Source of the DNA: Chitinophagaceae bacterium
GTDB lineage: Bacteria; Bacteroidota; Bacteroidia; Chitinophagales; Chitinophagaceae
DNA length: 64,000 nt
Direction of reading: 5' to 3'
Assembly (NCBI GenBank): GCA_035545755.1
Contig: DASZXQ010000048.1
Location: forward strand, 5,542 to 69,541
The notes beneath the pieces are model-generated. The model was not told where the DNA came from, ran no database searches, and saw only the letters and a program-made list of their open reading frames with translations. Below, piece after piece: positions 3,367 through 64,000 of this stretch. The first letter of the stretch is position 1. Every line of letters begins with the position of its first letter. A program made the translations under genes and the position numbers.

Positions 3367-4293
3367 ATGGGTATGCCCAAGACCAAATCATTGTTTACTA
3401 TTCCTGATTTTGTATTGTCGCCAAGGATCGACCAGGTAGGTGCGGAAGAGAGAGCCAGCCGTTTCACAAAAAGAAGTATTAAAAAAGAATCCAAAGTGAA
3501 TGGATTGAAGCTGGTGTTGAACATGATTGACCTGACCACATTGGAAGGAAAAGATACAGATGGTAAAGTAAAACAGCTTTGTTATAAAGCGATGCATCCG
3601 CATGATGCTTTGCCGGGATTACCGACTGTTGCCGCAATATGTGTTTATCCAACGATGGTGAAAGTGGCGAAGAAAGCATTGGAAGGTTCAGGAATAAAAG
3701 TGGCATCTGTTGCTACAGCATTTCCCAGCGGGCAGGCGCCGAGAGATGTGAAAATAAGAGACACCAAATATGCGGTTGCCAATGGCGCTGATGAGGTGGA
3801 TATGGTGATCAGCCGTGGTAAATTTCATGCGGGAGAATATAATTATGTGTTTGATGAAATAGCTGCCATCAAAGAAGCTTGCGGCGATGCGAGATTAAAA
3901 GTTATTTTAGAAACAGGTGAACTCGGAACTTTTGATAAAGTCCGTCGTGCAAGTGATATTGCCATGTATGCCGGTGCAGATTTTATAAAAACATCAACCG
4001 GGAAAATTCAGCCCGCTGCTACCATGCCCGTGACATTAGTAATGCTGGAAGCGATCCGTGATTTTTATTACAAAACAGGAAGAATGGTGGGCATGAAACC
4101 TGCAGGTGGAATTTCCAAATCAAAACTTGCTTTGCATTATTTAGTGATGCTAAAAGAAGTATTGGGAGAAGCATGGATGAATAATCACTGGTTCCGGTTC
4201 GGAGCAAGCAGCTTAGCGAATGATGTATTAATGCAGTTGGTAAAAGAGAAAACAGGGATTTACCAGGCTGCAAATTATTTCAGTGTGGATTAA
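3367..4293 (+). CDS. deoC: deoxyribose-phosphate aldolase (long form)
   Basis: 308 aa. LNMIDLTTLEG N-terminal motif and ADFIKTSTGK Schiff-base lysine motif of class I DERA. Confidence 0.9.
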   Translation: MGMPKTKSLFTIPDFVLSPRIDQVGAEERASRFTKRSIKKESKVNGLKLVLNMIDLTTLEGKDTDGKVKQLCYKAMHPHDALPGLPTVAAICVYPTMVKVAKKALEGSGIKVASVATAFPSGQAPRDVKIRDTKYAVANGADEVDMVISRGKFHAGEYNYVFDEIAAIKEACGDARLKVILETGELGTFDKVRRASDIAMYAGADFIKTSTGKIQPAATMPVTLVMLEAIRDFYYKTGRMVGMKPAGGISKSKLALHYLVMLKEVLGEAWMNNHWFRFGASSLANDVLMQLVKEKTGIYQAANYFSVD

Positions 4294-4467: not shown

Positions 4468-5985
4468 ATGCCAACAACAAAAAAGCCTGTCCGCCGTGGC
4501 GGGAAAGTAGCAACAAAATCAAATACGATCAAACTGAAATTTGATACAAGTTGGTCGTACGCACCTGCTCCGGAAAGTAAAAGCGCTGCGACGATCAAAA
4601 AGCAATATGATCTATTCATCAATGGCGAATGGGTGAAGCCTTCAGGCAATAAATATTTTGATACGATCAATCCCGCGAACGAGGAAAAATTATCTGAAGT
4701 AGCTGATGCAAATGCAGCAGATGTGGATCGTGCCGTAAAAGCGGCGAGGAATGCGTATGAAAAAGTGTGGAGAAAAATGCCGGCAAAAGAAAGAGCCAAA
4801 TATATTTTTCGTATTGCAAGAATGATACAGGAAAGAGCAAGGGAATTGGCGATCATTGAATCACTGGATGGTGGCAAACCAATTCGTGAGAGCCGTGACT
4901 TTGATGTGCCAACAGCAGCGAATCACTTTTTCTATTATGCCGGCTGGGCCGATAAATTAGATTATGCTTTTCCAAACAGAAATGCTGAGCCTTTAGGAGT
5001 AGCAGGACAGATCATTCCCTGGAATTTTCCTTTGCTGATGGCTGCATGGAAAATTGCACCGGCGTTGGCAACGGGAAACACTGTTGTATTAAAACCTGCA
5101 GAAACAACTCCATTAACTGCATTGAAATTGGCAGAAATAATTCAGGAGTCCGGCTTACCTGATGGTGTTGTAAATATTGTTACCGGTGCAGGAAAAACTG
5201 GTGCTGCAATTGTCAATCATCCCGACATTAATAAAATTGCTTTCACCGGTTCTACAGAAGTTGGGAAAATAATTCAGCGAGCCATTGCGGGAACGAATAA
5301 GAAAGTGACATTGGAATTAGGTGGTAAAGCAGCGAATATCATTTTCGAAGATGCGCCAATTGACCAGGCTGTGGAAGGTGTGATCAATGGAATTTATTTT
5401 AACCAGGGCCATGTGTGTTGTGCCGGCTCAAGATTGTATGTACAGGAATCCGTAGCAAAGCAAGTGATTCGAAAATTGAAAGACAGAATTGAATCGCTGA
5501 TCGTCGGAGATCCGATGGATAAAAACACAGACATTGGCGCTATCAATTCCAGACAACAACTGGAAACGATCCATCAATATTTAAAGATCGGAAAAGAAGA
5601 AGGCGCTGAAATGTATGAAAGCAGTTGTTCATTGCCCGGAAGAGGATTCTGGTGCAGACCGACTTTATTTACTAACGTAGCCCAAAGTGCCAGAATAGCG
5701 CAGGAAGAAATTTTCGGACCGGTGTTGGCTATTCTCACTTTCCGCACGGATGATGAAGTGATCGAAAAAGCAAACAACACACCTTATGGACTAAGTGCCG
5801 GTGTCTGGACAGATAAGGGTTCCAAGATCTTCAATATGACAAAGCGAATGAGAGCCGGAGTAGTTTGGGCAAATACATTTAATAAGTTCGATCCCTCCTC
5901 TCCTTTCGGTGGTTATAAAGAAAGCGGATTTGGAAGAGAAGGAGGCTTACATGGATTGTTGGCGTATGTGAATCTTACAAACTAA
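4468..5985 (+). CDS. NAD(P)-dependent aldehyde dehydrogenase
   Basis: 505 aa. ALDH motifs PWNFPL, FTGSTEVG, ELGGKA (catalytic Glu) and QGHVCCAGSR (catalytic Cys). Confidence 0.92.
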   Translation: MPTTKKPVRRGGKVATKSNTIKLKFDTSWSYAPAPESKSAATIKKQYDLFINGEWVKPSGNKYFDTINPANEEKLSEVADANAADVDRAVKAARNAYEKVWRKMPAKERAKYIFRIARMIQERARELAIIESLDGGKPIRESRDFDVPTAANHFFYYAGWADKLDYAFPNRNAEPLGVAGQIIPWNFPLLMAAWKIAPALATGNTVVLKPAETTPLTALKLAEIIQESGLPDGVVNIVTGAGKTGAAIVNHPDINKIAFTGSTEVGKIIQRAIAGTNKKVTLELGGKAANIIFEDAPIDQAVEGVINGIYFNQGHVCCAGSRLYVQESVAKQVIRKLKDRIESLIVGDPMDKNTDIGAINSRQQLETIHQYLKIGKEEGAEMYESSCSLPGRGFWCRPTLFTNVAQSARIAQEEIFGPVLAILTFRTDDEVIEKANNTPYGLSAGVWTDKGSKIFNMTKRMRAGVVWANTFNKFDPSSPFGGYKESGFGREGGLHGLLAYVNLTN

Positions 5986-6061: not shown

Positions 6062-7015
6062 ATGGAAAAACAAGAAATAAAAAAATCATCGCTCAGCATC
6101 AGTGAAGATGGATTGGAAAAGAAACCCTCTTCCAAACGCTTAGAAGTTTTGAAGACGTATAAAATTTATATCGGCGGGCAATTCCCAAGAACGGAATCAG
6201 GGAGATATTATGTGGCAAAGAATGCAGCCGGAAAACAACTTGCCAATATCTGCTTAAGCTCAAGAAAAGATTTTCGTGATGCGGTTGTCGCAGCAAGAGG
6301 AGCATTTGGCGGCTGGAGCAACAGAGCAGCGTTCAATCGTGGACAAATTTTATATCGCATGGCTGAAATGCTGGAAGGAAGAAAAGCACAGTTCATTGAT
6401 GAATTGATGCAACAGGATGCTACAAAAGGAAAAGCCGAAAAAGAAGTTAATCTCGCTATTGATCGTTTGATCTATTATGCAGGCTGGTGTGACAAATACC
6501 AGCAGGTATTCAGCTCAGTAAATCCTGTAGCTACTTCGCATTTTAATTTTTCTGTTCCGGAACCAACGGGAGTTGTTTCTGTTATTGCTCCGCAACATGA
6601 TTCATTGCTTGGGTTGGTTTCTGTTATTGCACCTGTTATTGCGGGAGGAAACACCTGTGTTGTTTTGGCATCAGAATCAAAACCATTATGTGCGGTTACT
6701 TTTGCTGAAGTGATCAATTCTTCTGATATGCCGGTTGGTGTTGTCAATATTTTAACAGGAAAAGTATCAGAATTGGCTTCCTGGTTTGTAGATCATATGG
6801 ATGTGAATGCAACCATTTTTTGCGAAAAAGATTCTGATATGCAAAAGATGATGCGGGAAAAATCAGCGCTGAATGTAAAACGGATCGTTTTCCATGATAA
6901 AGTGAATTGGTATAATGCAGAGGGACAATCGCCCTATTTTATCATGGATACGCAGGAAATAAAAACCACCTGGCATCCTATCGAGAATATTGCCGGATCA
7001 GGAGCGGGATATTAA
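6062..7015 (+). CDS. ALDH-family paralogue lacking the catalytic domain (probably non-catalytic)
   Basis: 317 aa. Aligns by eye to the N-terminal two thirds of the upstream ALDH (YYAGW.DK, PTGVVSVIAP, GGNTCVVLAS, VGVVNILTG). The WNFP Asn position reads QHDS, and the ORF ends before the ELGGK/Cys region. Confidence 0.75.
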   Translation: MEKQEIKKSSLSISEDGLEKKPSSKRLEVLKTYKIYIGGQFPRTESGRYYVAKNAAGKQLANICLSSRKDFRDAVVAARGAFGGWSNRAAFNRGQILYRMAEMLEGRKAQFIDELMQQDATKGKAEKEVNLAIDRLIYYAGWCDKYQQVFSSVNPVATSHFNFSVPEPTGVVSVIAPQHDSLLGLVSVIAPVIAGGNTCVVLASESKPLCAVTFAEVINSSDMPVGVVNILTGKVSELASWFVDHMDVNATIFCEKDSDMQKMMREKSALNVKRIVFHDKVNWYNAEGQSPYFIMDTQEIKTTWHPIENIAGSGAGY

Positions 7016-7031
7016 AGTTTAAAATACTTTC

Positions 7032-7493
7032 ATGAAACTGTTTTTCATCATAGCATGCTCGCTAATCACAGCACCGTTATTTTCGCAGGATTCATCACTG
7101 CTGAAATTGCCGGACAACAGTTCCGTGATTGTACATAAGGATCCAAGACTTGATCTTTTGGTCAAGAAACAATCAGAGATCAATGAAGCAATCTATCGCA
7201 ATTCCCGCCGCACCGCAAAAGGTTTCCGCATTTTGGTGATCAATACCAGCAAAAGAAATGAAGCGATCGATGCCAAGGCAAAAATGTATATGTACTTTCC
7301 TGAACTGAAAGCATATTTAATTTATCAATCTCCCTACTTCCGTCTGAAAGTAGGCAATTTCAAAGAACGTGAAGATGCGGAAGATTATCAGAAAAAAATC
7401 AATAAATATTTTCCCAACGGCGTGTTTATTGTGAATGACATTATCGAGGTGAAACCTGATGATGATCCTGAGAACCCATCGCCGGGTTTATAA
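7032..7493 (+). CDS. SPOR domain-containing protein
   Basis: 153 aa with a signal peptide. C-terminal GFRILVINTSKRNEAIDAKAKMYMYFPELKAYLIYQSPYFRLKVGNFKEREDAEDY matches the SPOR (peptidoglycan-binding) pattern. Confidence 0.8.
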   Translation: MKLFFIIACSLITAPLFSQDSSLLKLPDNSSVIVHKDPRLDLLVKKQSEINEAIYRNSRRTAKGFRILVINTSKRNEAIDAKAKMYMYFPELKAYLIYQSPYFRLKVGNFKEREDAEDYQKKINKYFPNGVFIVNDIIEVKPDDDPENPSPGL

Positions 7494-18000: not shown

Positions 18001-21000
18001 AAGAGCAATCAACTCACCAATGCAAAATATTTGTGGACGCAGGGATCAAATCCCATCGAGCCGGGAGAAAAAACGAATATTCAGTTAGGAACTTCCGCTG
18101 ATAATCTTTTCGTGATTGAACATATTGATAAGCAGTCAGGAGTCAGGAGTCAGGAATCAGGAGTTGGGAATTTCAGTGTTGTTCAATTAAACAATGAAAA
18201 GAAGTTGTTTGATTTTACAGCAACAGAATCGGATCGTGGCGGATATGGAGTAAATTATTTTTTTGTAAAAGACAATCACTTTTATGAATTCAATGATGTG
18301 ATCCGCGTGCCGTGGACTAATAAAGATTTGAAAATTGAATACGCTACTTTTCGTGATAAAACTTTGCCGGGAAGTGAAGAAAAATGGAAAGTAAGAATTA
18401 CCGGTTATAAAAATGAAAAAGTGGCAGCAGAAATGTTAGCCAGTATGTACGATGCATCGTTAGATCAATTCAAATATCATAGCTGGAATGAGCCTTATTT
18501 ATGGCCGATTTATTATTCCGGGCAAAGATGGAATAGTAGCTATAATTTTAGCCAGTTAATATCACAGCAACAGGCAAACAATAATTCAGATTTTAAATAC
18601 CTTAAGAAAGAATACGACTATTTAATTTTCAGCTTGCTAAATAATATATATGGCTATGGCGGCAATGTTATTCGCTTAAGAAGAATCAGTAGTATTGCTC
18701 AGCCAACAATGGCATTAGAAGGAAAAGTAGCAGGGCTACAAGAAGCTGTCGTTACCGGTCATGGCAAACAAAATAGAAAAAGCGATTCCACAGCTTTTAG
18801 AGCAAATAATGATGAAAATCAAATTTTTGAAAAAGTAGATGTAACGTTGCCCGACGGTACTCATATTGTAAATGGAAGAATAATTAACAAAAACATTAAA
18901 CCTGAAAATAATCAAGAAACTCAGATCAGAAAAAACTTCAACGAAACTGCGTTCTTCTTTCCTGTCCTGCACACCGATTCAACAGGGTCAATAGAATTTT
19001 CATTCACTATGCCGGAAGCATTGACAAGATGGAAGTTCATGGCATTGGCTCATACGAAAGACCTGGCATTCGGATATAGCACAAAAGAAATTGTTACACA
19101 AAAACAACTGATGGTACAACCTAATGCTCCGAGATTTTTAAGAGAAGGAGACCGGGTTGAATTCAGCGCCAAGATCGCTAACCTCACTGATAAAGAATTG
19201 ACCGGCTCAGCTGAATTACAATTATTCGATGCAGCAACTAACGAACCGGTTGATGGCGCTTTTCAGAATATGTATGCCAATCAATACTTCACTGTCGGTG
19301 CAGGACAAAGTGAAGCAGTAAATTTCCAATTACAAGTTCCCTATCAATTCAACAAAGCATTGACATGGCGCATCGTTGCCAAAGCTGGCGATTTCAGCGA
19401 TGGTGAAGAAGCATCACTGCCTGTTCTTACAAACCGGATGCTTGTCACTGAAACATTACCATTGAATATGAGAGGAACCGGAACTAAAAATTTCAAATTT
19501 GAAAAATTGCTGAATTCCGGAAATTCCGAAACATTACAAAATCATGCACTCACCATAGAATATACCAGCAATCCTGCCTGGTATGCGGTGCAGGCGCTGC
19601 CCTACCTCATGGAATATCCGTACGAGTGTGCAGAGCAAACATGGAACCGCTATTATGCAAATTCATTAGCAACAATGATCGTTAACAGTTCCCCCCGTAT
19701 CAAACAGGTATTTGAGAAATGGAGAACAGAAGACACAGCGGCTTTGCTTTCCAATCTTCAAAAGAATGAAGAATTAAAATCTGTATTACTGGAAGAAACT
19801 CCCTGGGTGCTGGATGCAAATAATGAAGAACAGCAAAAGAAAAATATTGCTCTCTTGTTTGATATGGTAAAAATGAGCAAAGAACTGGATGCTGCTTATG
19901 AAAAATTAAAACAGATGCAAAGCAGCAACGGTGGGTTTGTCTGGTTCAAAGGAGGGCCGGATGATCAATACATCACTCAATACATCATTACCGGAATTGG
20001 GCATTTGAAAAAACTGAATAGTTATTCAAAAGATCAGGACACCAAATTGAAACAAATACTCAATACTGCCCTGCCTTATCTTGATAAAAAAATTAAAGAA
20101 GATTATGATGAACTCGTAAAATATAAAACGGATCTGAAAAAATATGTTCCGGGTTATACAGAGATACAATATTTATATATGCGCAGCTTTTTCCCGGAAT
20201 ATCCCATTGCTTCAAATTCGCAAAAAGCATATAATTATTTCAGGCAAAGAGCGCAGAAAACCTGGGTGCAGCAAAACAAATACATGGAAGGAATGATCGC
20301 TTTGTCATTGTACAGGACTGGTGACGCAAGAACTCCGGCTGATATTTTGAGATCATTAAAAGAAACTTCTATTAATAATGAAGAGCTCGGCATGTATTGG
20401 AAAGATATCAGTAGCGGTTGGTTCTGGTACCAGGCGCCGATTGAAACGCAATCGTTGTTGATCGAAGCTTTCCAGGAAATTAGTAAGGATACAAAAACCG
20501 TTGATGACCTGAAAACATGGCTACTCAAAAACAAACAAACAAATAACTGGCAAACGACAAAAGCAACAGCAGAAGCTTGTTATGCTTTATTGTTGGAAGG
20601 AAGTGATTGGATCAGTGAAGCACCGCAAGTAGATATCAAATTGGGAAACACAGCTATCAATTCAAATGATAATAAGCAGGAAGCAGGGACCGGGTATTTC
20701 AAAAAAATTATTGATGGTGCAAGCGTAGAGCCCAATATGGGAAATATCAGTGTAACAGTTCAGCCCTCCAGTGATCAAAATAAATCTGCCACATCATGGG
20801 GAAGTATTTACTGGCAATATTTTGAAGACCTCGATAAGATCACTCCTGCTGCTACTCCGTTGAAATTGGTGAAGAAATTATTTATAGAAAAGAATACTGA
20901 TAACGGGCCGGTACTTACACCGGTAAGTGACGGTGATGAATTAAAAGTCGGAGATAAGGTGAAAGCGAGAATTGAACTGCGTGTCGATCGGGACATGGAA

Positions 21001-59394: not shown

Positions 59395-60468
59395 TCAATT
59401 CCGTTCTTTCTGCGTTTCAGGAAAAATATTAATGTACCCAACGTTTACCAGGAGATCTGCTTCAGCAACATCGTTGGCTTTTACCACGGAAGCGTCAAAT
59501 AGTTTGGTTTTATCGCAATCCAGGCAGTTCAACGTAATTCCTACTTTTCTGAAATCAATAGTACCCATCTTCTCCGGTTTTATCATGAAGGCGAAGTCTG
59601 ACCGCTTGCCATAGATCTCAAAATCACTACTATTCAGTTTCAACAATTCTTTTATAGTCATTCCGCAATGAATTCCGTTTTTCAGTTCCCACTGATTATT
59701 ATCAAAAAAAACTCCTGTGAATTGTTTGCCGCTGACCGTCGGCATCACATCACTGATAATGATATAAGAAAGAGACTGCAGGTTCCGCTGATCCTCCCAT
59801 ACAAATACCGCCTGCTTGTTGCTGTTGGGGAATATCACGGTACACTTTCTCAGATCGTCCTTTGAAAAATAATAAAGATCCTGCTTTACGTTAGCGGCGC
59901 CAAAAAAGCCAACCAGGTATTCATTCGAATTAAAACTAAGGAGGTCTTCCGCATATTTAACCGTGCGTGGATCCGGGTATTCTTTCTTTTTTAAAACAAA
60001 ACTATACCTCGATATACCATCATTTACTTCATGCATAGTTTCAACAGTAATATTTTTTCTTTGAAAAAGCAATGAAGTATCCTGTTCCAGGCTTACACTG
60101 TGATCATAAAAAAAACCAGCCCCTGCCAATTGCATTTTACCTTCTATGAATTCTTTTTCAGAAGAAGTGTGCCAGGCAAAATATTTTGAACCATCTTTAG
60201 TATAGATATCAATGCTTCGTATAACCGGGGAATCGTTACTAATAGTTTGGTTATTACTTTTCATTTCATTTTCAAAGAAAGATGTCATTGTTGAATTGTA
60301 ATCAACCTTCCCGGAATTAGACAGGAAGCCTTTCCTGATCAAAAACTGTTCGGCATTTTTAGGAGTAAAGGAAGACAAGGCCACCAGGTCATCGGAAGTA
60401 AATGATTGGCCGAATGCTGCATTGACAGCAAAACCCAACGAAATAAATATGAGTAACAAACTCTTCAT
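59395..60468 (-). CDS. hypothetical secreted protein
   Basis: Signal peptide MKSLLLIFISLGFAVNAAFGQ from the ATG at 60468. No recognisable motif. Confidence 0.6.
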   Translation of the reverse strand: MKSLLLIFISLGFAVNAAFGQSFTSDDLVALSSFTPKNAEQFLIRKGFLSNSGKVDYNSTMTSFFENEMKSNNQTISNDSPVIRSIDIYTKDGSKYFAWHTSSEKEFIEGKMQLAGAGFFYDHSVSLEQDTSLLFQRKNITVETMHEVNDGISRYSFVLKKKEYPDPRTVKYAEDLLSFNSNEYLVGFFGAANVKQDLYYFSKDDLRKCTVIFPNSNKQAVFVWEDQRNLQSLSYIIISDVMPTVSGKQFTGVFFDNNQWELKNGIHCGMTIKELLKLNSSDFEIYGKRSDFAFMIKPEKMGTIDFRKVGITLNCLDCDKTKLFDASVVKANDVAEADLLVNVGYINIFPETQKERN

Positions 60469-60732
60469 GAACAACATTGTTCTTCATATCTATTGTTTGG
60501 TCTTTAAAAAGAATGCAGGATTGAAGGAGGGTATCCGGCTTATTTCAAGGAGTAGAAAGAATTCTCTACAAAATACTACATTTTCCTGATAGATAAAAGG
60601 GCCCGGAGAGCCTGGGGTTATGCACGTTCATTCACGCCATGCTTTTACCGGAAACATTGCGGAAAGAAAAAAGAATTCCATTCAAACCCGGACGGCTATC
60701 CCTTTACATGCCCGGTCCTGCATCAGTAAATT

Positions 60733-60921
60733 TTAGAATCGCTCTAGCCTCTTCCTGATACTCCACATATCTACAACGCCAAAGCGTTTTACAGGCGTCA
60801 ATTTATTCCGGGCCAAACCAATCTCCGGTTCCACTATTATAGCCGGAATTACCAGTTCCTGTGAAAGATCAACTACCGGGTCAATAATAATAATTTCTGT
60901 CTTTAAACTTGTATCGTTCAT
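60733..60921 (-). CDS. small hypothetical protein
   Basis: 62-aa ATG-initiated ORF in an otherwise empty interval. No motif, so weak support. Confidence 0.35.
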   Translation of the reverse strand: MNDTSLKTEIIIIDPVVDLSQELVIPAIIVEPEIGLARNKLTPVKRFGVVDMWSIRKRLERF

Positions 60922-61197
60922 AATTTTTTATTTATAGAAGTATAAAAGCAAGGTATAGTGAAGCGCTCAGGCGGGTGGCGAAAGAAGTTGAGAAATTCAG
61001 GTATTCGCTGCTTTATTAATACCTGCAATTTACGTACTACCAGTTTGTGGATCTGATTTATACCTGTACTAAACGTTAAACTTATCAACAAACAACAGCT
61101 AACTGCATGTTTTCCAAAAATAAAATCTCAGCAGCAGTTTAATAAGCCTACATTACATGCAATGCAGGTTATTCTATCTGCAAATAAATTTAAGAAC

Positions 61198-61608
61198 ATG
61201 TCAAACATTTTAGATGTTGTTGTGGCCGACAAAAACCTCGCCACTATGATGAGAGGTGTAAAAGCAGCAGGATTGGAATCAGAACTGAGTCAGGCAGGGC
61301 CTTTTACCGTATTCGCTCCCACAGATCTGGCTTTTGGAAAATTAGCAGCCGGTGAAATGACCGAATTGCTGAAACCTGAAAATAAAGTGAAACTTTCGGA
61401 CATTCTGAATTATCATGTAGTAGCAGGGAAAACTAATTTCAAAGACCTGAAAGACGGCCAGAAATTAAAAACCATAAATGGAAAGGAACTGGATGTGAAA
61501 ATAAGCAACGGCAATGTTACGATCAATGGTGCCAAAATTCAGGGACGTGATAACGAAGCGTCCAACGGAGTGGTGCATTCAGTGGATACCGTAATTGCAG
61601 TTAACTAA
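61198..61608 (+). CDS. single FAS1 (fasciclin) domain protein without obvious signal peptide
   Basis: GPFTVFAPTDLAFGKL and NYHVVAGK ... NGVVHSVDTVI are canonical FAS1 motifs. Start placed at ATG 61198 (MSNILDVV). Confidence 0.85.
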   Translation: MSNILDVVVADKNLATMMRGVKAAGLESELSQAGPFTVFAPTDLAFGKLAAGEMTELLKPENKVKLSDILNYHVVAGKTNFKDLKDGQKLKTINGKELDVKISNGNVTINGAKIQGRDNEASNGVVHSVDTVIAVN

Positions 61609-61649
61609 ATGTTCACTGCCTTATATCTTTCATGAAAAACAAATATTAC

Positions 61650-61686
61650 AAAAGCTGCCTGTCACTAAGGTGGCTTTTGTTTCTTA
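61650..61686 (+). terminator. possible terminator after the fasciclin gene
   Basis: AAAGCUGCC ... GGUGGCUUU (9 bp with two G-U pairs) followed by UUGUUUCUU. Confidence 0.4.
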
Positions 61687-61768
61687 ACAAAGCCGCTGTA
61701 GTTTGATAACTGATAAAAACAGTAATCACATTCAGACAGATTTTTTTAAACCCCTGAAAACCCATTTT

Positions 61769-62089
61769 ATGTTTCAATACAGCAAATACAAAATTGATCC
61801 TGAAGACAGCTTTCAGCCTGATGATTTCCCCAAAGTAAGAGATGAACTGGCTGATCTGTGCCATGGAATAGCAGGCTTGCCTGCTGACCATAAAAAAGAG
61901 ATAGTTCTTTCTTTTATAAAAAATCATTTATTAAACACCGATTGGCTCAAGTCAAATCCCGAGCTAACCAGCCTGGTCACCAGCGGTGCATTCGCTACCG
62001 GTCATTTGGAATCGCTTTTCGATTCCTGCAGGATGAACAAACAATTTCAGCAGGAATATGAAGATTACATCCGGGAAATGATAGTGTAA
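61769..62089 (+). CDS. hypothetical protein
   Basis: 106 aa from ATG 61769 (MFQYSKYKIDPED). The track start is TTG 61703. No motif. Confidence 0.45.
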   Translation: MFQYSKYKIDPEDSFQPDDFPKVRDELADLCHGIAGLPADHKKEIVLSFIKNHLLNTDWLKSNPELTSLVTSGAFATGHLESLFDSCRMNKQFQQEYEDYIREMIV

Positions 62090-62577
62090 ATCACAAAGTC
62101 GGTCATAGAAGTGCCGGCGCTCATTATAAAAGTAATTGCATCTTGATGCCGGAGATAAAATCCGGCAAAGGCGAAGAACTGCGCCTTATTATTTTTTAAT
62201 GAACCCCTGCAAAAAATTAAAATTGCTTGAATGCCGAACTTTCTGAGATGCTTGCCGCAGGCAAGAACAATACAGCAGATGTAGCAATAAATTCTCCCCT
62301 CATGCTGTCTGTTAGATCACTATTATTCGGGCCTTCATCGTCTTTTCTCCCACCCATGTTCGGAACTTTGGCCGGATGGCTCAAAGCAGGCAGAAGTACG
62401 TTCCGAACGAGACCCGAACAAAACCCCTACCGAAGAATTTCCATTTTAGCAGCAAAATCCGGCAATTGGCAGCAATTCACAGCAACAACGTGAGCAAAGG
62501 GATGTTTGAAGGCGTGCCTCGGTTGGAACCGTGGCACGCCTGCGCAAGCAGATGTACCTTTACAAAAAGGTTAAGGC

Positions 62578-62943
62578 ATGAAAAAATTAATAGCCACAAT
62601 TACGGCCCTGTGTTTTTTTGTTTTTGCAAAAGCACAGCAGGAGATCAAAATAGACGAACTGAATAAGCATACCGGCGATTCAGTGACGGTATGTACTAAA
62701 ATATTCGGCGGCATTTATCTTGACCGGAGCAAGGGCGCCCCCACCCTTTTAGATGCCGGCGGCAAATACCCGGATGCACCGCTGACACTTTTTATAGGGC
62801 AGGAAACAAGAAAACAATTTAAAGAAGCACCCGAATCATTTTACAAAGACAAAGATGTTTGCATTACCGGCAGAATAAAATTGTATAAAGGCAAACCCGA
62901 AATAGAGATCTACGATGAAAAACAGATACAGGTGGGTAAATGA
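62578..62943 (+). CDS. small secreted protein (possibly OB-fold-like)
   Basis: Signal peptide MKKLIATITALCFFVFAKAQ. 100-aa beta-rich mature part ending in ITGRIKLYKGKPEIEI. Confidence 0.6.
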   Translation: MKKLIATITALCFFVFAKAQQEIKIDELNKHTGDSVTVCTKIFGGIYLDRSKGAPTLLDAGGKYPDAPLTLFIGQETRKQFKEAPESFYKDKDVCITGRIKLYKGKPEIEIYDEKQIQVGK

Positions 62944-63099
62944 GATATAGCGCTTTCGGTTCTTGAGATAGGAACCGGGGCCGGGGCATCGGGAAATCAG
63001 CTAAGAAAAAATACGAATCTGCCGCAGGCAGCGAAGCAGTTTTTCTTTTTTCAGCAATAGCATTCATCGTGCAATTACCATAAATATATAGCGGAGGGA

Positions 63100-63262
63100 G
63101 GCAATCATTTGACGTGGGAAGCCTTTCATCTTCCAGACGAAGCCAATCATTTGGAAAGGGAAGCCTTTCATCTTCCAGACAAAGCCAATCATTTGGAAAG
63201 CGAAGCCTTTCATCTTCAAGACAAAGCCAATCATTTGGAAAGGGAAAGGCATCTTTTGGATG
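63100..63262. repeat. 42-bp tandem repeat, about 3.8 copies
   Basis: Units at 63100-63141, 63142-63183, 63184-63225 and 63226 to ~63262 (last degenerate). Consensus GCCAATCATTTGGAAAGGGAAGCCTTTCATCTTCCAGACAAA. Full units 2 and 3 differ at 2 positions. Confidence 0.9.
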
Positions 63263-63602
63263 AAATGTTTTTGATTACCAAGGGTTTTTGATTTTTGCTT
63301 TGATGTTTAAGCTGTGTGCGGCGTTTTCTCTACCCTTCACAGATCTGTAAGTTAGTCCCGATGCTGATATAGAAAACTACGACGTGTTATTTCTATACGT
63401 TAATTCTGATGATGGCTTAGAAGACACCGACCATGGCGTGTTATTTTTATTGAGAACACCTGCCAAGACGGAAAAGTAAAATATTGCCGGAAAAGGGAAG
63501 TACCTAAACTGCCCGGCGGCGGGCAGGGAACATTCAGTATATTCGATGTGCCCACGACAACCGCCGCAGCCCTTGTGTAAACCTCATTTTCATTTTCACA
63601 AT

Positions 63603-64000
63603 ATGAAACAATTTCTGATACTTCTCGCATTCGCTTCAGCTGTCTATACCTCATACAGCCAGGATTCATCCGGGCTTAGCTATTCATTCAAAGAAGCCGG
63701 TATCTCCATTAAGCTTCCTAATTCAAAATGGTACCTGGCCGACAGTGAGGAAAATAACAGCCGGGCAGTTTATATTTTTAAAAGAGAGGCGATAACAGAT
63801 AATTCCAACACGCATGTAATTCCAAACATTGCGGTAATTATTGAAGACGTGGACGAAAATACCGATGTAATCGAATATTCAATAGTAAAAAGAACCAAAA
63901 CTCCGTTTGATGTGTCAGAAACATTCATACATGGCGATGGCAAAATAAATTATGAAAATGCTGTTGGGTACAAAGGAAGCTATACGGACCAACGATCCAT
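63603..64000 (+). CDS. hypothetical secreted protein (5' part; runs off the window)
   Basis: ATG 63603 gives MKQFLILLAFASAVYTSYSQ (signal peptide), then an open frame with no stop to the window end. It is absent from the ORF track because it is open-ended. Confidence 0.55.
   Translation, partial: MKQFLILLAFASAVYTSYSQDSSGLSYSFKEAGISIKLPNSKWYLADSEENNSRAVYIFKREAITDNSNTHVIPNIAVIIEDVDENTDVIEYSIVKRTKTPFDVSETFIHGDGKINYENAVGYKGSYTDQRS

Follow-up and report, generated by a model that had tools for sequence, protein, structure and literature searches.

The tandem repeat in the window, by which we mean the whole 64,000-nt stretch of contig DASZXQ010000048.1 analysed here, is the core of a conserved leader-array-tail element of about 400 bp (about 62993-63393) and does not form a stand-alone feature. 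Judged by alignment, it is paralogous to an array that lies upstream of a gene encoding a protein with a fibronectin type III (FN3) domain. In the genomes sampled, the pairing of this gene family with such arrays holds, and the period of the arrays is conserved while their sequence turns over. On balance, we favor the interpretation that the window locus is a non-coding minisatellite with a 21-bp period, an orphan copy of the upstream region of an FN3 gene, and an element that acts at the level of DNA. A helically phased DNA element of variable copy number would be the best reading of the comparative data presented below.

Structure of the array and of the surrounding element

The initial annotation described a 42-bp tandem repeat at this locus. 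This repeat is real, as TRF reports a period-42 array at 63102-63246 (3.5 copies, 92% matches, score 241), together with a second reading of period 21 at 63118-63228 (5.3 copies, 64%). Its description can be refined to a basic unit of 21 bp, of which seven stand in register at 63097-63243 (equal to 3.5 x 42 bp) and one degenerate copy at 63244-63264 ends the array, a count that comes from a 268-contig MAG and in which the number of units could be mis-assembled. Two diverged 21-bp half-units, A and B, make up the 42-bp unit, and within each 21-bp unit the first ~14 nt (rAAGnCnaTCATyT) are conserved while the last 7 nt are variable. As had been noted, the units abut without unique spacers and the two central 42-bp copies differ at only two bases, which indicates a recent duplication. 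In a pattern search the 42-mer matched exactly at 63142-63183 and with 2 mismatches at 63184-63225, and it had no match in 100 dinucleotide-preserving shuffles. Both CCAAtcatTTGG and GAAAGGgaagCCTTTC were found in the window repeat. The palindrome and hairpin previously pointed out in the unit are thus present as sequences, but the longest inverted repeat of the window unit (6-nt arms) is within chance expectation when compared with shuffled units (p = 0.11).

Table 1. Positions of the parts of the element and of the open frames that overlap it.
Feature	Position	Strand	Basis or remark
Minisatellite	63097..63264	.	TRF, pattern search with shuffles, unit table, per-column entropies
Leader	62993..63099	.	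Alignment, own-genome search, G002 copies, terminator-like call, inverted repeat
Leader A-run	63003-63011		
Leader hairpin CTGCC-GCA-GGCAG	63019-63031		
Leader T-run	63040-63051		
3' block cttttggatgaaatgtttttgattaccaagggtttttgatttttgctttg	63252..63302	.	Comparison of element copies
Tail	63303..63393	.	Common only to the window copy and C205b
60-aa ORF, TTG start, heptads EAFHLPD/KANHLER	63109..63291	+	Judged incidental
62-aa ORF, ATG start, QMIGFVWKMKGFPF repeats	63064..63252	-	Judged incidental
Third open frame, 49 aa	63114-63263	+	

The leader is conserved with two paralogous copies in the source genome, C205a and C205b, and in patches with the copies in G002, a genome of the same genus. 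Its hairpin has a counterpart in the same place in the G002 leaders, built there from another stem sequence (ACAAC...GTTGT), and a site resembling a terminator was predicted at 63031-63019 of the minus strand. Further along the leader are the boxes GCAATAGCATTCATC and ATAAATATATAGCGGA. The 3' block is rich in TTTG, contains the direct repeat GTTTTTGATT at a spacing of 17 nt, and is the best-conserved part of the element across the five copies compared (window, C205a, C205b and two in G002).

In the source genome (G000), a search with the element found it at three loci, namely the window and the two paralogs, both of which are located on contig C205. The unit is therefore not widely dispersed, and the possibility of an ordinary REP-like element, which had been considered earlier, can be set aside. 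Elsewhere we found two copies in G002 and one fragment in the related genome G005; the 58 remaining related genomes had no match, and scans of metagenome and viral contigs gave 0 true matches. An exact-pattern scan for the 3' block in 185,579 species genomes returned same-genus MAGs only, plus chance matches; the corresponding scans yielded only unrelated matches in metagenome contigs and none in viral contigs. The leader and the 3' block occur in all three G000 copies and the tail in two of them. Leader, unit core and 3' block align with the C205a and G002 copies at 70-90% identity, and the flanks are better conserved among copies than the array: the leader hairpin and the 3' block retain 76-90% identity while the array turns over, and C205a and C205b have almost identical leaders and arrays that are about 50% different. 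The window array has 7 units, compared with 3 in each C205 paralog.

Pairing of the arrays with an FN3-domain gene family

Three of the copies, C205a and both of those in G002, are located about 250 bp upstream of, and divergent from, an FN3-like gene. The proteins of this family are ~200 aa long and consist of a helical part at the N-terminus and an FN3 domain at the C-terminus. By tblastn, the source genome contains five family genes, on contigs C205, C190, C193, C233 and C209, and none on the window contig (C48). A 21/42-bp array precedes all five paralogs, at a distance of 90-280 nt. The window copy, having no FN3-like gene on its contig, is an orphan. Orphans recur, as contig C245 carries units of the C193 type without an FN3-like gene, and the source genome has eight such arrays in total, five linked to genes and three orphans. 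Such arrays can thus leave their partner gene, taking leader and tail along.

When family genes from sampled Chitinophagaceae were considered, an array was located no more than 900 nt upstream in 21 of 28 cases and downstream in 1 of 28, against a genome background of 0.017 arrays per 900 nt. A phylum-wide sample added 12 further loci, taken from two more families of the order, another family of the class and also from outside that class, and 8 of these had an array. Among the sampled Bacteroidota as a whole, an array is present upstream of 29 of 40 family genes and downstream of 2 of 40. The period is a multiple of 21 in 26 of these 29 arrays (21, 42, 63, 84, 105, 126 or 168/189), although any multiple of 21 is also a multiple of 3, and the period alone cannot separate helical phasing from a seven-codon repeat. 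The exceptions have periods of 22/44 (two arrays) and 85 (one array). Across the source genome, periods of 21 (30 arrays) and 42 (11) stand out against 20 (7), 22 (9) and 41/43 (0); above 14 bp the over-represented periods are multiples of 21, and 28, 35, 49 and 56 are rare or absent. Array sequences are unrelated from locus to locus, and no convincing motif or strand bias was common to arrays of different loci. In one related array seen in two metagenome samples, the number of units was 9.5 in one and 8.5 in the other, a difference of one 21-bp unit. The largest arrays noted reach 23 units, in a Chitinophagales species with a complete genome (G046) that carries 7 family genes. We found no publication on FN3-gene-linked arrays of 21-bp period in the literature searched. 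The window locus adds a case to this unpublished pattern, in which an FN3-family gene is regularly preceded by an array that is free in sequence and has a two-turn period.

Twenty-one base pairs correspond to two turns of the DNA helix. In the reading we favor, the array would act as DNA, presenting short identical sites every two helical turns on one face of the helix. Any intrinsic bend would add up along such a phased array, and the stack of sites could affect how neighboring genes are transcribed by offering a platform for binding or for DNA architecture. Slippage or unequal recombination would change the number of units in steps that keep the helical phase. The window copy, which has no FN3 partner, may act on the genes that flank it or may be drifting. 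If the arrays are functional, they would represent a mechanism at the DNA level that measures length rather than sequence. Among the earlier proposals, that of an array of protein-binding sites on one DNA face comes closest to the comparative data, while the parts of it that tied the array to the gene at 63603 or likened it to a plasmid-type iteron did not hold.

Several observations count against the DNA-level reading. No binding protein was identified, and arrays of different loci have no motif in common. A significant dyad is present in only 8 of 33 units, and the window unit is not among the convincing cases. The element also has no recognizable promoter in it or near it: the exact Bacteroidetes -7 box TAnnTTTG does not occur in the element, where only relaxed matches were found, and the single match of a sigma-70 scan, at 63595-63622 beside the 63603 gene, is within chance expectation. 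The window copy lacks a partner gene, and the uncertainty of its unit number in a fragmented assembly applies here as well. More tentatively, and with a probability that we consider low, the FN3 gene and its two-turn array could form a cis-regulatory or chromatin-like module, with the orphans as portable, copy-number-tunable and phase-preserving platforms for a DNA-binding factor, possibly the helical domain of the FN3 protein itself. A structure model of this protein reached a pLDDT of 93, and Foldseek (PDB, BFVD) and a PDB profile search returned the fn3 domain only, with no DNA-binding clue from the helical domain. Pfam, NCBIfam, PHROGs and PADLOC likewise gave nothing beyond the fn3 domain, and a sigma-54 promoter was found before FN3-like genes at 0 of 46 loci.

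Neutral, mobile, coding, RNA and replicon alternatives

The alternative with the best prospects, though still an unlikely one, is that the window copy is a neutral relic, derived from the C205 region by segmental duplication and now located in a variable intergenic hotspot, with an array that persists and grows by slippage only and has no function here. The absence of an FN3-like gene from the window contig would be expected in that case, as would the low number of copies in the genome, the loss from the window copy of the ATG present in both C205 copies, and the lack of a detectable promoter or structured RNA. The locus is moreover variable within the genus. Compared with the orthologous G002 locus, the stretch that differs is 62977..63472, and the G002 gap, between the orthologs of the 121-aa and 194-aa genes, is occupied by a 4.3-kb cassette encoding a Dam-like methylase, a ParB-like protein, a 278-aa protein and an IS110-type transposase. 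The element is missing at the orthologous loci of both G002 and G005, and G005 lacks the 194-aa gene as well. However, a relic of this kind does not sit well with a leader hairpin and 3' block that keep their identity next to an array that turns over, or with an array that has more than twice as many units as its paralogs and near-identical central copies. Furthermore, the class as a whole retains its position and period from family to family, and neutral drift does not account for this.

A rather small probability attaches to a non-autonomous mobile element (MITE) of the BrickBuilt type, carrying a minisatellite and moved by a transposase encoded elsewhere. The leader-array-tail layout resembles that of BrickBuilt in P. 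gingivalis (PMC4596501), the three dispersed copies have common flanks, and the insertion is absent from the orthologous loci just described. In addition, the end of the tail, CGTGTTATTTC (63383-63393), is a 9/11 inverted match to GAAAAAATACG in the leader (63005-63015), and these ends coincide with the limits of homology. However, the left "end" is also present, as the A-run of the hairpin, in the ancestral gene-linked C205a and G002 copies. We read the flanks of the window and C205b copies and found no consistent target-site duplication, and the copies number only three, two of them with the tail. A scan of the genome for the core of the inverted ends gave 18 scattered matches with no IS-end pattern evident by position, and no insertion sequence with matching ends emerged.

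The array is most likely non-coding, as far as comparison of the copies can tell. The open frames described on both strands exist as reported (Table 1), and the 62-aa frame on the minus strand is the codon-aligned antisense of the plus-strand frame. They carry no weight, because a unit that has no stop codon and a length divisible by three remains open however often it is repeated. A spacer-free repeat of such a length yields ORFs on both strands that look convincing, and two have already been deposited as proteins. We consider it improbable that the locus encodes a small repeat protein, whether the plus frame is read as 43-86 aa of x-x-(D/N/F)-H-L-x-x heptads (a metal-binding protein or multi-core precursor) or the minus frame as a cationic amphipathic F-I-R-K-M-I-A repeat. 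All five copies keep the His-Leu frame open, four of them with an ATG start, and the two 43-aa C205 ORFs stand in NCBI nr as predicted proteins. Leucine is retained through the four codons CTT, CTG, TTG and TTA, but we dropped this variety as a coding signal because the column was picked post hoc and the unit has no excess of variation at third (wobble) positions, its entropy by codon position being 0.99/0.71/0.71.

Conservation of the ORF also argues against a peptide. Its N- and C-termini differ between species, with unrelated N-termini in G000 and G002, and the repeat-frame ORF of G002 stops where the 3' block begins, whereas the G000 ORFs run into this block and take their C-terminus from it. 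In related genomes the frame changes at the junction between array and flank, the conserved 3' block being read in another frame or lying beyond the stop codon, which argues for a non-coding element. The only start left to the plus frame of the window copy is a TTG inside the repeat unit, and the minus-strand frame is interrupted by stop codons in C205a and, in the G002 arrays, in the last unit. Searches of 5.8 billion protein clusters with the 79-aa ORF of G002 and the 43-aa ORF of C205b recovered nothing beyond the two C205 paralogs, and the small ORF gave nothing in Pfam, NCBIfam, PHROGs or PADLOC. The RiPP-like or amphipathic repeat peptide proposed in the initial annotation is accordingly not borne out, while its remark that no maturase gene is visible holds beyond the window too: no maturase or exporter/transporter gene was found from the repeat to the end of the contig, about 12 kb. 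Located in that direction are genes for a DUF2911 protein, an M23 peptidase (at a distance of 5 kb) and a GPR1/FUN34/YaaH channel, along with four ORFs that match nothing in Pfam; those upstream of the repeat encode a fasciclin-domain protein and proteins of unknown function. In the class of FN3-linked arrays, none of the frames is open consistently, and 6 of 22 arrays have all six frames closed. Periods of 22/44 cannot keep a reading frame either, and the class as a whole is probably non-coding.

Similarly improbable, and slightly more so, is a small RNA, in which the array would be transcribed, most plausibly from the minus strand, ending at the leader hairpin and T-run, to give a regulatory RNA or a protein sponge. 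The terminator-like hairpin and T-run do follow the array on that strand, the G002 hairpin keeps its place with a different stem sequence, and some sister arrays have strong dyads in every unit. However, the hairpin has an A-run on its other side and reads equally well as a bidirectional terminator insulating the neighbors, and no minus-strand promoter was found. A permissively filtered Rfam cmscan of 60000-64000 returned no match at E <= 1, and folding was no better than that of shuffled sequences on either strand (z = -1.37 for the minus strand and +0.42 for the plus strand), so that the repeat-hairpin small RNA suggested earlier finds no backing.

Iterons or a partition site of an integrated replicon are the least probable reading, hardly credible even though spacer-free direct repeats of 21-22 bp fit the geometry of iteron arrays (R6K gamma has seven 22-bp iteron repeats) and copies of the element adjoin mobile and defence genes, since Pfam scans of the neighboring genes found no rep, parA or parB beside any G000 copy, 2 kb separate the element from the closest DnaA-box-like site, with no DnaA box any nearer (over the window such sites are fewer than the shuffle mean), the FN3-like protein has no match in plasmid or phage collections, and one genome holds eight such arrays.

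Comparison with known repeat systems

The closest published analogue is, by likeness of layout, BrickBuilt of Porphyromonas gingivalis, a spacer-free 23-nt minisatellite with leader and tail that is always intergenic and has promoter activity, to which the 41-nt repeats of PgRS/MITE464 in the same species are related (PMC4596501). As in the window element, the host belongs to the Bacteroidota, the units abut (23 nt in BrickBuilt and 41 nt in PgRS, compared with 21/42 here), the later part of the unit is variable, the leader and tail are non-repetitive, and an intergenic location goes together with spurious ORFs called by annotation pipelines and with a narrow host range. The two differ in that BrickBuilt occurs 19 times per genome, carries IS5-like terminal inverted repeats and is in some cases accompanied by target-site duplications (Klein et al. 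2015, PMC4596501), whereas the window element has three copies, a 9/11 candidate end and no duplication. There is no sequence similarity between them, and no tie to a gene family is reported for BrickBuilt, while the window element derives from an FN3-family array.

Heptamer direct repeats (STRR) have been described in cyanobacteria, and TAACTGA repeats in Beggiatoaceae and some Bacteroidetes (MacGregor 2015, PMC4679880). The source genome is likewise rich in 7- and 14-bp arrays (31 of each), and heptamer arrays are likewise intergenic and unexplained. Unlike these, the window array has no 7-bp sub-period.

The iterons of theta plasmids (R6K, pSC101, RK2, P1) are direct repeats of 17-22 bp spaced at about two turns, on one face of the helix. 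The window array is similar in its tandem units, each with a conserved core and a variable part. It differs in that a Rep gene, an AT-rich unwinding element with DnaA boxes and a plasmid context are all missing, and in that one chromosome carries many arrays of unrelated sequence.

In Haemophilus influenzae, 7-bp repeats upstream of hmw1A and hmw2A make expression phase-variable. There, as here, an array stands upstream of a gene and changes its number of units, as seen in the one-unit difference in a sister array. In contrast to the 7-bp tracts, the 21-bp units would keep the helical phase instead of shifting it.

Structure of the repeat and of the element around it

The repeat lies where the initial annotation had placed it, as confirmed by TRF, which reported a period-42 array (3.5 copies, 92% matches) and a weaker period-21 reading, and by the annotated 42-mer, which was found once exactly and once with two mismatches; none of 100 shuffles contained any match. 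Read in register, the array consists of units of types GAAGCCTTTCATCTTCCAGAC and AAAGCCAATCATTTGGAAAGG in alternation, seven in all, a number that may reflect mis-assembly in so fragmented a host MAG (G000; 4.1 Mb, 268 contigs, estimated contamination 3.9%), followed by one degenerate unit. Nucleotides 1-14 of the 21-bp unit are conserved and the final 7 are variable. Both ORFs described earlier are present, and an additional plus-strand frame is open too. The small palindromes are also present, but the longest is within chance expectation for the unit (p = 0.11). The window corresponds to C48:5542-69541, and the same contig carries, some 4 kb ahead of it, a period-63 array of 3.5 copies with 21-bp sub-units of type CCNCGGAATCTNTCAGGAGTN.

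The array belongs to a larger element with two paralogs in G000, C205a and C205b, on a single 10.8-kb contig. All three copies have a leader of ~105 nt (A-run, hairpin, T-run), a short series of 21-bp units and a near-invariant, cttttggatgaaatgtttttgattaccagggggtttttgatttttgctttg-like 3′ block, and a ~90-nt tail, ending at 63393 in the window, is found in the window copy and C205b. The arrays are far less conserved than the flanks. The leader hairpin is the sole structural feature with comparative support (window CTGCC-GCA-GGCAG, C205a GTGCT-GCA-GGCAC, G002 ACAAC-N7-GTTGT); it was called as a terminator on the minus strand and, because an A-run and a T-run flank it, resembles a bidirectional terminator. 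Among 61 related genomes, DNA similarity to the element was confined to two of the same genus: G002 has two complete copies, each with about ten units, and G005 a single fragment. Exact-pattern scanning of 185,579 species, each represented by one genome, and two scans of metagenome contigs brought to light no further genuine copies. One chance match (TGATAACCAATGATTTTTGATTTT), in Bacteroides sp. KG123, follows four ~22-bp direct repeats (GACAGACACAAGTGTTTTAGCC) that resemble the window element in layout and are unrelated to it in sequence. A short dispersed motif of terminator-like appearance, ACACCGACCAYGGCGTGTTATTTTTATTGAGAACACC, follows the window element and recurs at a few further sites.

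Table. Coordinates of the repeat, its paralogs and other features
Feature	Contig or locus	Position
Period-42 array	window	63102-63246
Period-21 reading	window	63118-63228
42-mer, exact	window	63142-63183
42-mer, two mismatches	window	63184-63225
Seven in-register units	window	63097-63243
C205a	C205	about 4995-5227
C205b	C205	about 6570-6909
Period-63 array	C48	1418-1636
Gap between 121-aa and 194-aa genes	window	62977-63472
Locus compared with gap	L062 (G002:C9)	383500-395700
Example arrays, G000	C190; C233; C193; C209	19528-19787; 6164-6411; 2192-2396; 5767-5939
TTTTGCAATTGTTGAAATGTATTTGACTATTGTTTGAATGTT arrays	C179; C42; C167; C182; C69	2930-3096; 6398-6553; 883-1051; 309-473; 23467-23625
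161-177-bp repeats	C205; C10; C187	2706-3013; 454-873; 1-417
25-codon ORF	C190; C233; C193; C268 (fourth copy)	19414-19498; 6441-6523; 2435-2516; 5530-5589
ACACCGACCAYGGCGTGTTATTTTTATTGAGAACACC motif	window; C152; C205; G006:C3	63424-63473; 3701-3742; about 7025-7070 and 7160-7200; 798033-798079
T-run/CACC(C)/A-run motif	L086, L090, L091, L093, L097, L108, L109, L122, L128, L136, L137	
Repeat in 518-aa frame	L081 (G067:C46)	749-904
~22-bp direct repeats and chance match	L029 (NZ_CP171223.1)	4470-4602

Arrays with a 21-bp period and the FN3-like genes

The plus-strand frame of the array reads as heptads in which Leu is invariant and His nearly so. When the G002 heptad peptide was used as the query in a six-frame search, dozens of unrelated 21-bp arrays came up across Chitinophagaceae, in many of which the matching frame contains stops. 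We therefore undertook whole-genome TRF and a survey of the FN3-like gene family. TRF yielded 198 non-redundant arrays in G000 with strongly quantised periods: 31, 31, 30 and 11 arrays fell at periods 7, 14, 21 and 42, respectively; the neighbouring periods 20 and 22 had 7 and 9, and 41 and 43 had none. Above 14 bp, multiples of 21 are favoured (63, 84 and 105 are also present); the remaining multiples of 7 occur rarely (two arrays at period 28) or not at all. The eleven distinct 42-bp arrays lie mostly outside long ORFs and represent several sequence families. A family of five 42-bp arrays with unit TTTTGCAATTGTTGAAATGTATTTGACTATTGTTTGAATGTT, whose flanks are conserved at either end, is closer in appearance to a dispersed MITE-type element than is the element in the window. 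A separate dispersed family consists of 161-177-bp repeats with GTCATTGCGAGG...GATTGCTTCG, adjoining a GIY-YIG-like ORF.

C205a and both G002 copies are located about 250 bp upstream of an FN3-like gene of ~204 aa and divergent from it. The AlphaFold model of the product (pLDDT 93) comprises an N-terminal helical part and an fn3 domain, the only recognisable domain. G000 has exactly five such genes (on C205, C190, C193, C233 and C209), some of which (C190/C193/C233) may stem from co-binned strains, and all five have a 21/42-bp array 90-280 nt upstream. The family is patchy, occurring in 16 of 150 other Chitinophagaceae genera, often in multiple copies. Counting arrays of period at least 15 and TRF score at least 60 within 900 nt, we found one upstream of 21 of the 28 Chitinophagaceae genes examined and downstream of 1, where the background density in G000 is 0.017 per 900 nt. 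Sampling across the phylum contributed 12 more loci, from a further two families in the order, a further family in the class and more distant groups; 8 of these loci had arrays, with up to 23.5 units. Overall, arrays were upstream in 29/40 and downstream in 2/40, and the period was a multiple of 21 in 26 of the 29, the exceptions being 22/44 (two arrays) and 85 (one). Unit sequences are unrelated between loci; position and period, not sequence, are conserved across families. All six frames are closed in 6 of 22 arrays.

Unit number changes in nature: two ENA metagenome contigs of the same FN3-like locus (L114 and L115) have 9.5 and 8.5 copies of GGCTTCTTTTGTTTTTTGAAG in the region 550-780 nt upstream of the gene at 4001, a difference of one 21-bp unit. 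A gene caller placed a 136-aa ORF in one of these arrays and none in the other. In many family members, belonging to various genera, a T-run, then CACC(C), then an A-run (e.g., tttttttcacccccaaatttt) occurs about 20-35 nt upstream of the FN3-like start codon, where TAnnTTTG boxes are rare. Immediately distal to their arrays, three FN3-like paralogs have a conserved 25-codon ORF (MKQKPIYRP....PVFSPSSSDD.W), oriented towards array and gene. The full-text literature searched contained no account of the FN3-array pairing.

Interpretation of the window copy

The window repeat is an orphan member of this gene-linked family of arrays. We consider it an orphan in a variable spot because C48 has no FN3-like gene and the orthologous loci differ: in G002 a 4.3-kb cassette (Dam-like methylase, ParB-like protein, 278-aa protein, IS110-type transposase) replaces the element, and in G005 both the element and the 194-aa gene are absent. 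The gap between the flanking 121-aa and 194-aa genes varies within the genus. G002 has another insertion, of 5.4 kb, one gene farther upstream. C205b is likewise an orphan, adjoining a type II restriction-modification pair and a DpdB-like gene, and contig C245 carries a second, independent orphan with C193-type units and no gene.

The array looks non-coding, keeps a strict 21-bp register and descends from a gene-linked array. We infer that the constraint lies on DNA geometry: because 21 bp is two helical turns, repeated sites would lie on the same side of the helix and any intrinsic bends would sum, and gain or loss of units would preserve helical phase. The occasional 22/44-bp arrays would be compatible with a helical ruler and not with a codon ruler. 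Given this putative constraint, we favour a DNA-level platform of variable unit number, which would be bound by a protein or have an architectural role, but the loci have no common motif (neither k-mer nor strand bias), a dyad is significant in just 8 of 33 units, and neither sigma-54 promoters before FN3-like genes (canonical boxes, 46 loci) nor canonical Bacteroidetes promoters at the window element are evident.

For the orphan copy in the window, a neutral relic has to be taken seriously as an alternative. A MITE-like origin of the element in the window and C205b is possible, as its ends pair in an inverted match of 9/11, but no target duplication was seen there and the copies number just three.

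The repeat-peptide (RiPP-like) reading of the initial annotation is not supported by the sequences compared. The heptad frame is open in 5/5 copies, with an ATG start in 4/5, and both C205 ORFs are deposited in NCBI nr as predicted proteins. However, the G000 and G002 ORFs share neither N-terminus nor C-terminus. The G002 frame ends (…SDALQ*) right at the start of the conserved 3′ block, which the G000 ORFs translate as …LLDEMFLITxGF*, so that the best-conserved nucleotides are unconserved as protein. Mean column entropy per codon position among 24 distinct units was 0.99/0.71/0.71, with no third-position excess, and in C205a and G002 stops interrupt the codon-aligned antisense frame (QMIGFVWK… peptide). 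A search of 5.8 billion protein clusters matched only the two C205 paralogs, and family libraries gave no match to the small ORF. Despite open frames and ATGs, a heptad-frame product therefore fails the conservation, entropy and homology tests. Radical-SAM, protease-exporter or similar genes, suggested as partners beyond the window, are absent from the repeat to the contig end. At a locus in another genome (L081), a 21/42-bp repeat with unit TGCGGAAGATCATTTATGCCA, resembling the core of the window family, lies within a 518-aa open frame that by eye is like a putative non-ribosomal peptide synthetase condensation domain; similar repeats can therefore also occur within coding DNA. The small-RNA reading is not supported either, with no Rfam match at E ≤ 1 and folding that on neither strand surpasses that of shuffled sequences (z = -1.37 minus, +0.42 plus).

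Comparison with known repeat systems

The nearest published analogue of the window element is BrickBuilt of P. gingivalis, an intergenic 23-nt minisatellite without spacers that has a leader, a tail and bidirectional promoter activity, and whose relative PgRS/MITE464 has 41-nt repeats (PMC4596501). The two are alike in layout but differ in copy number, terminal repeats and gene linkage. Heptamer repeats (PMC4679880) are plentiful in G000 too, but form a separate class from the window array. Iterons resemble the array in geometry, although their context is entirely unlike.
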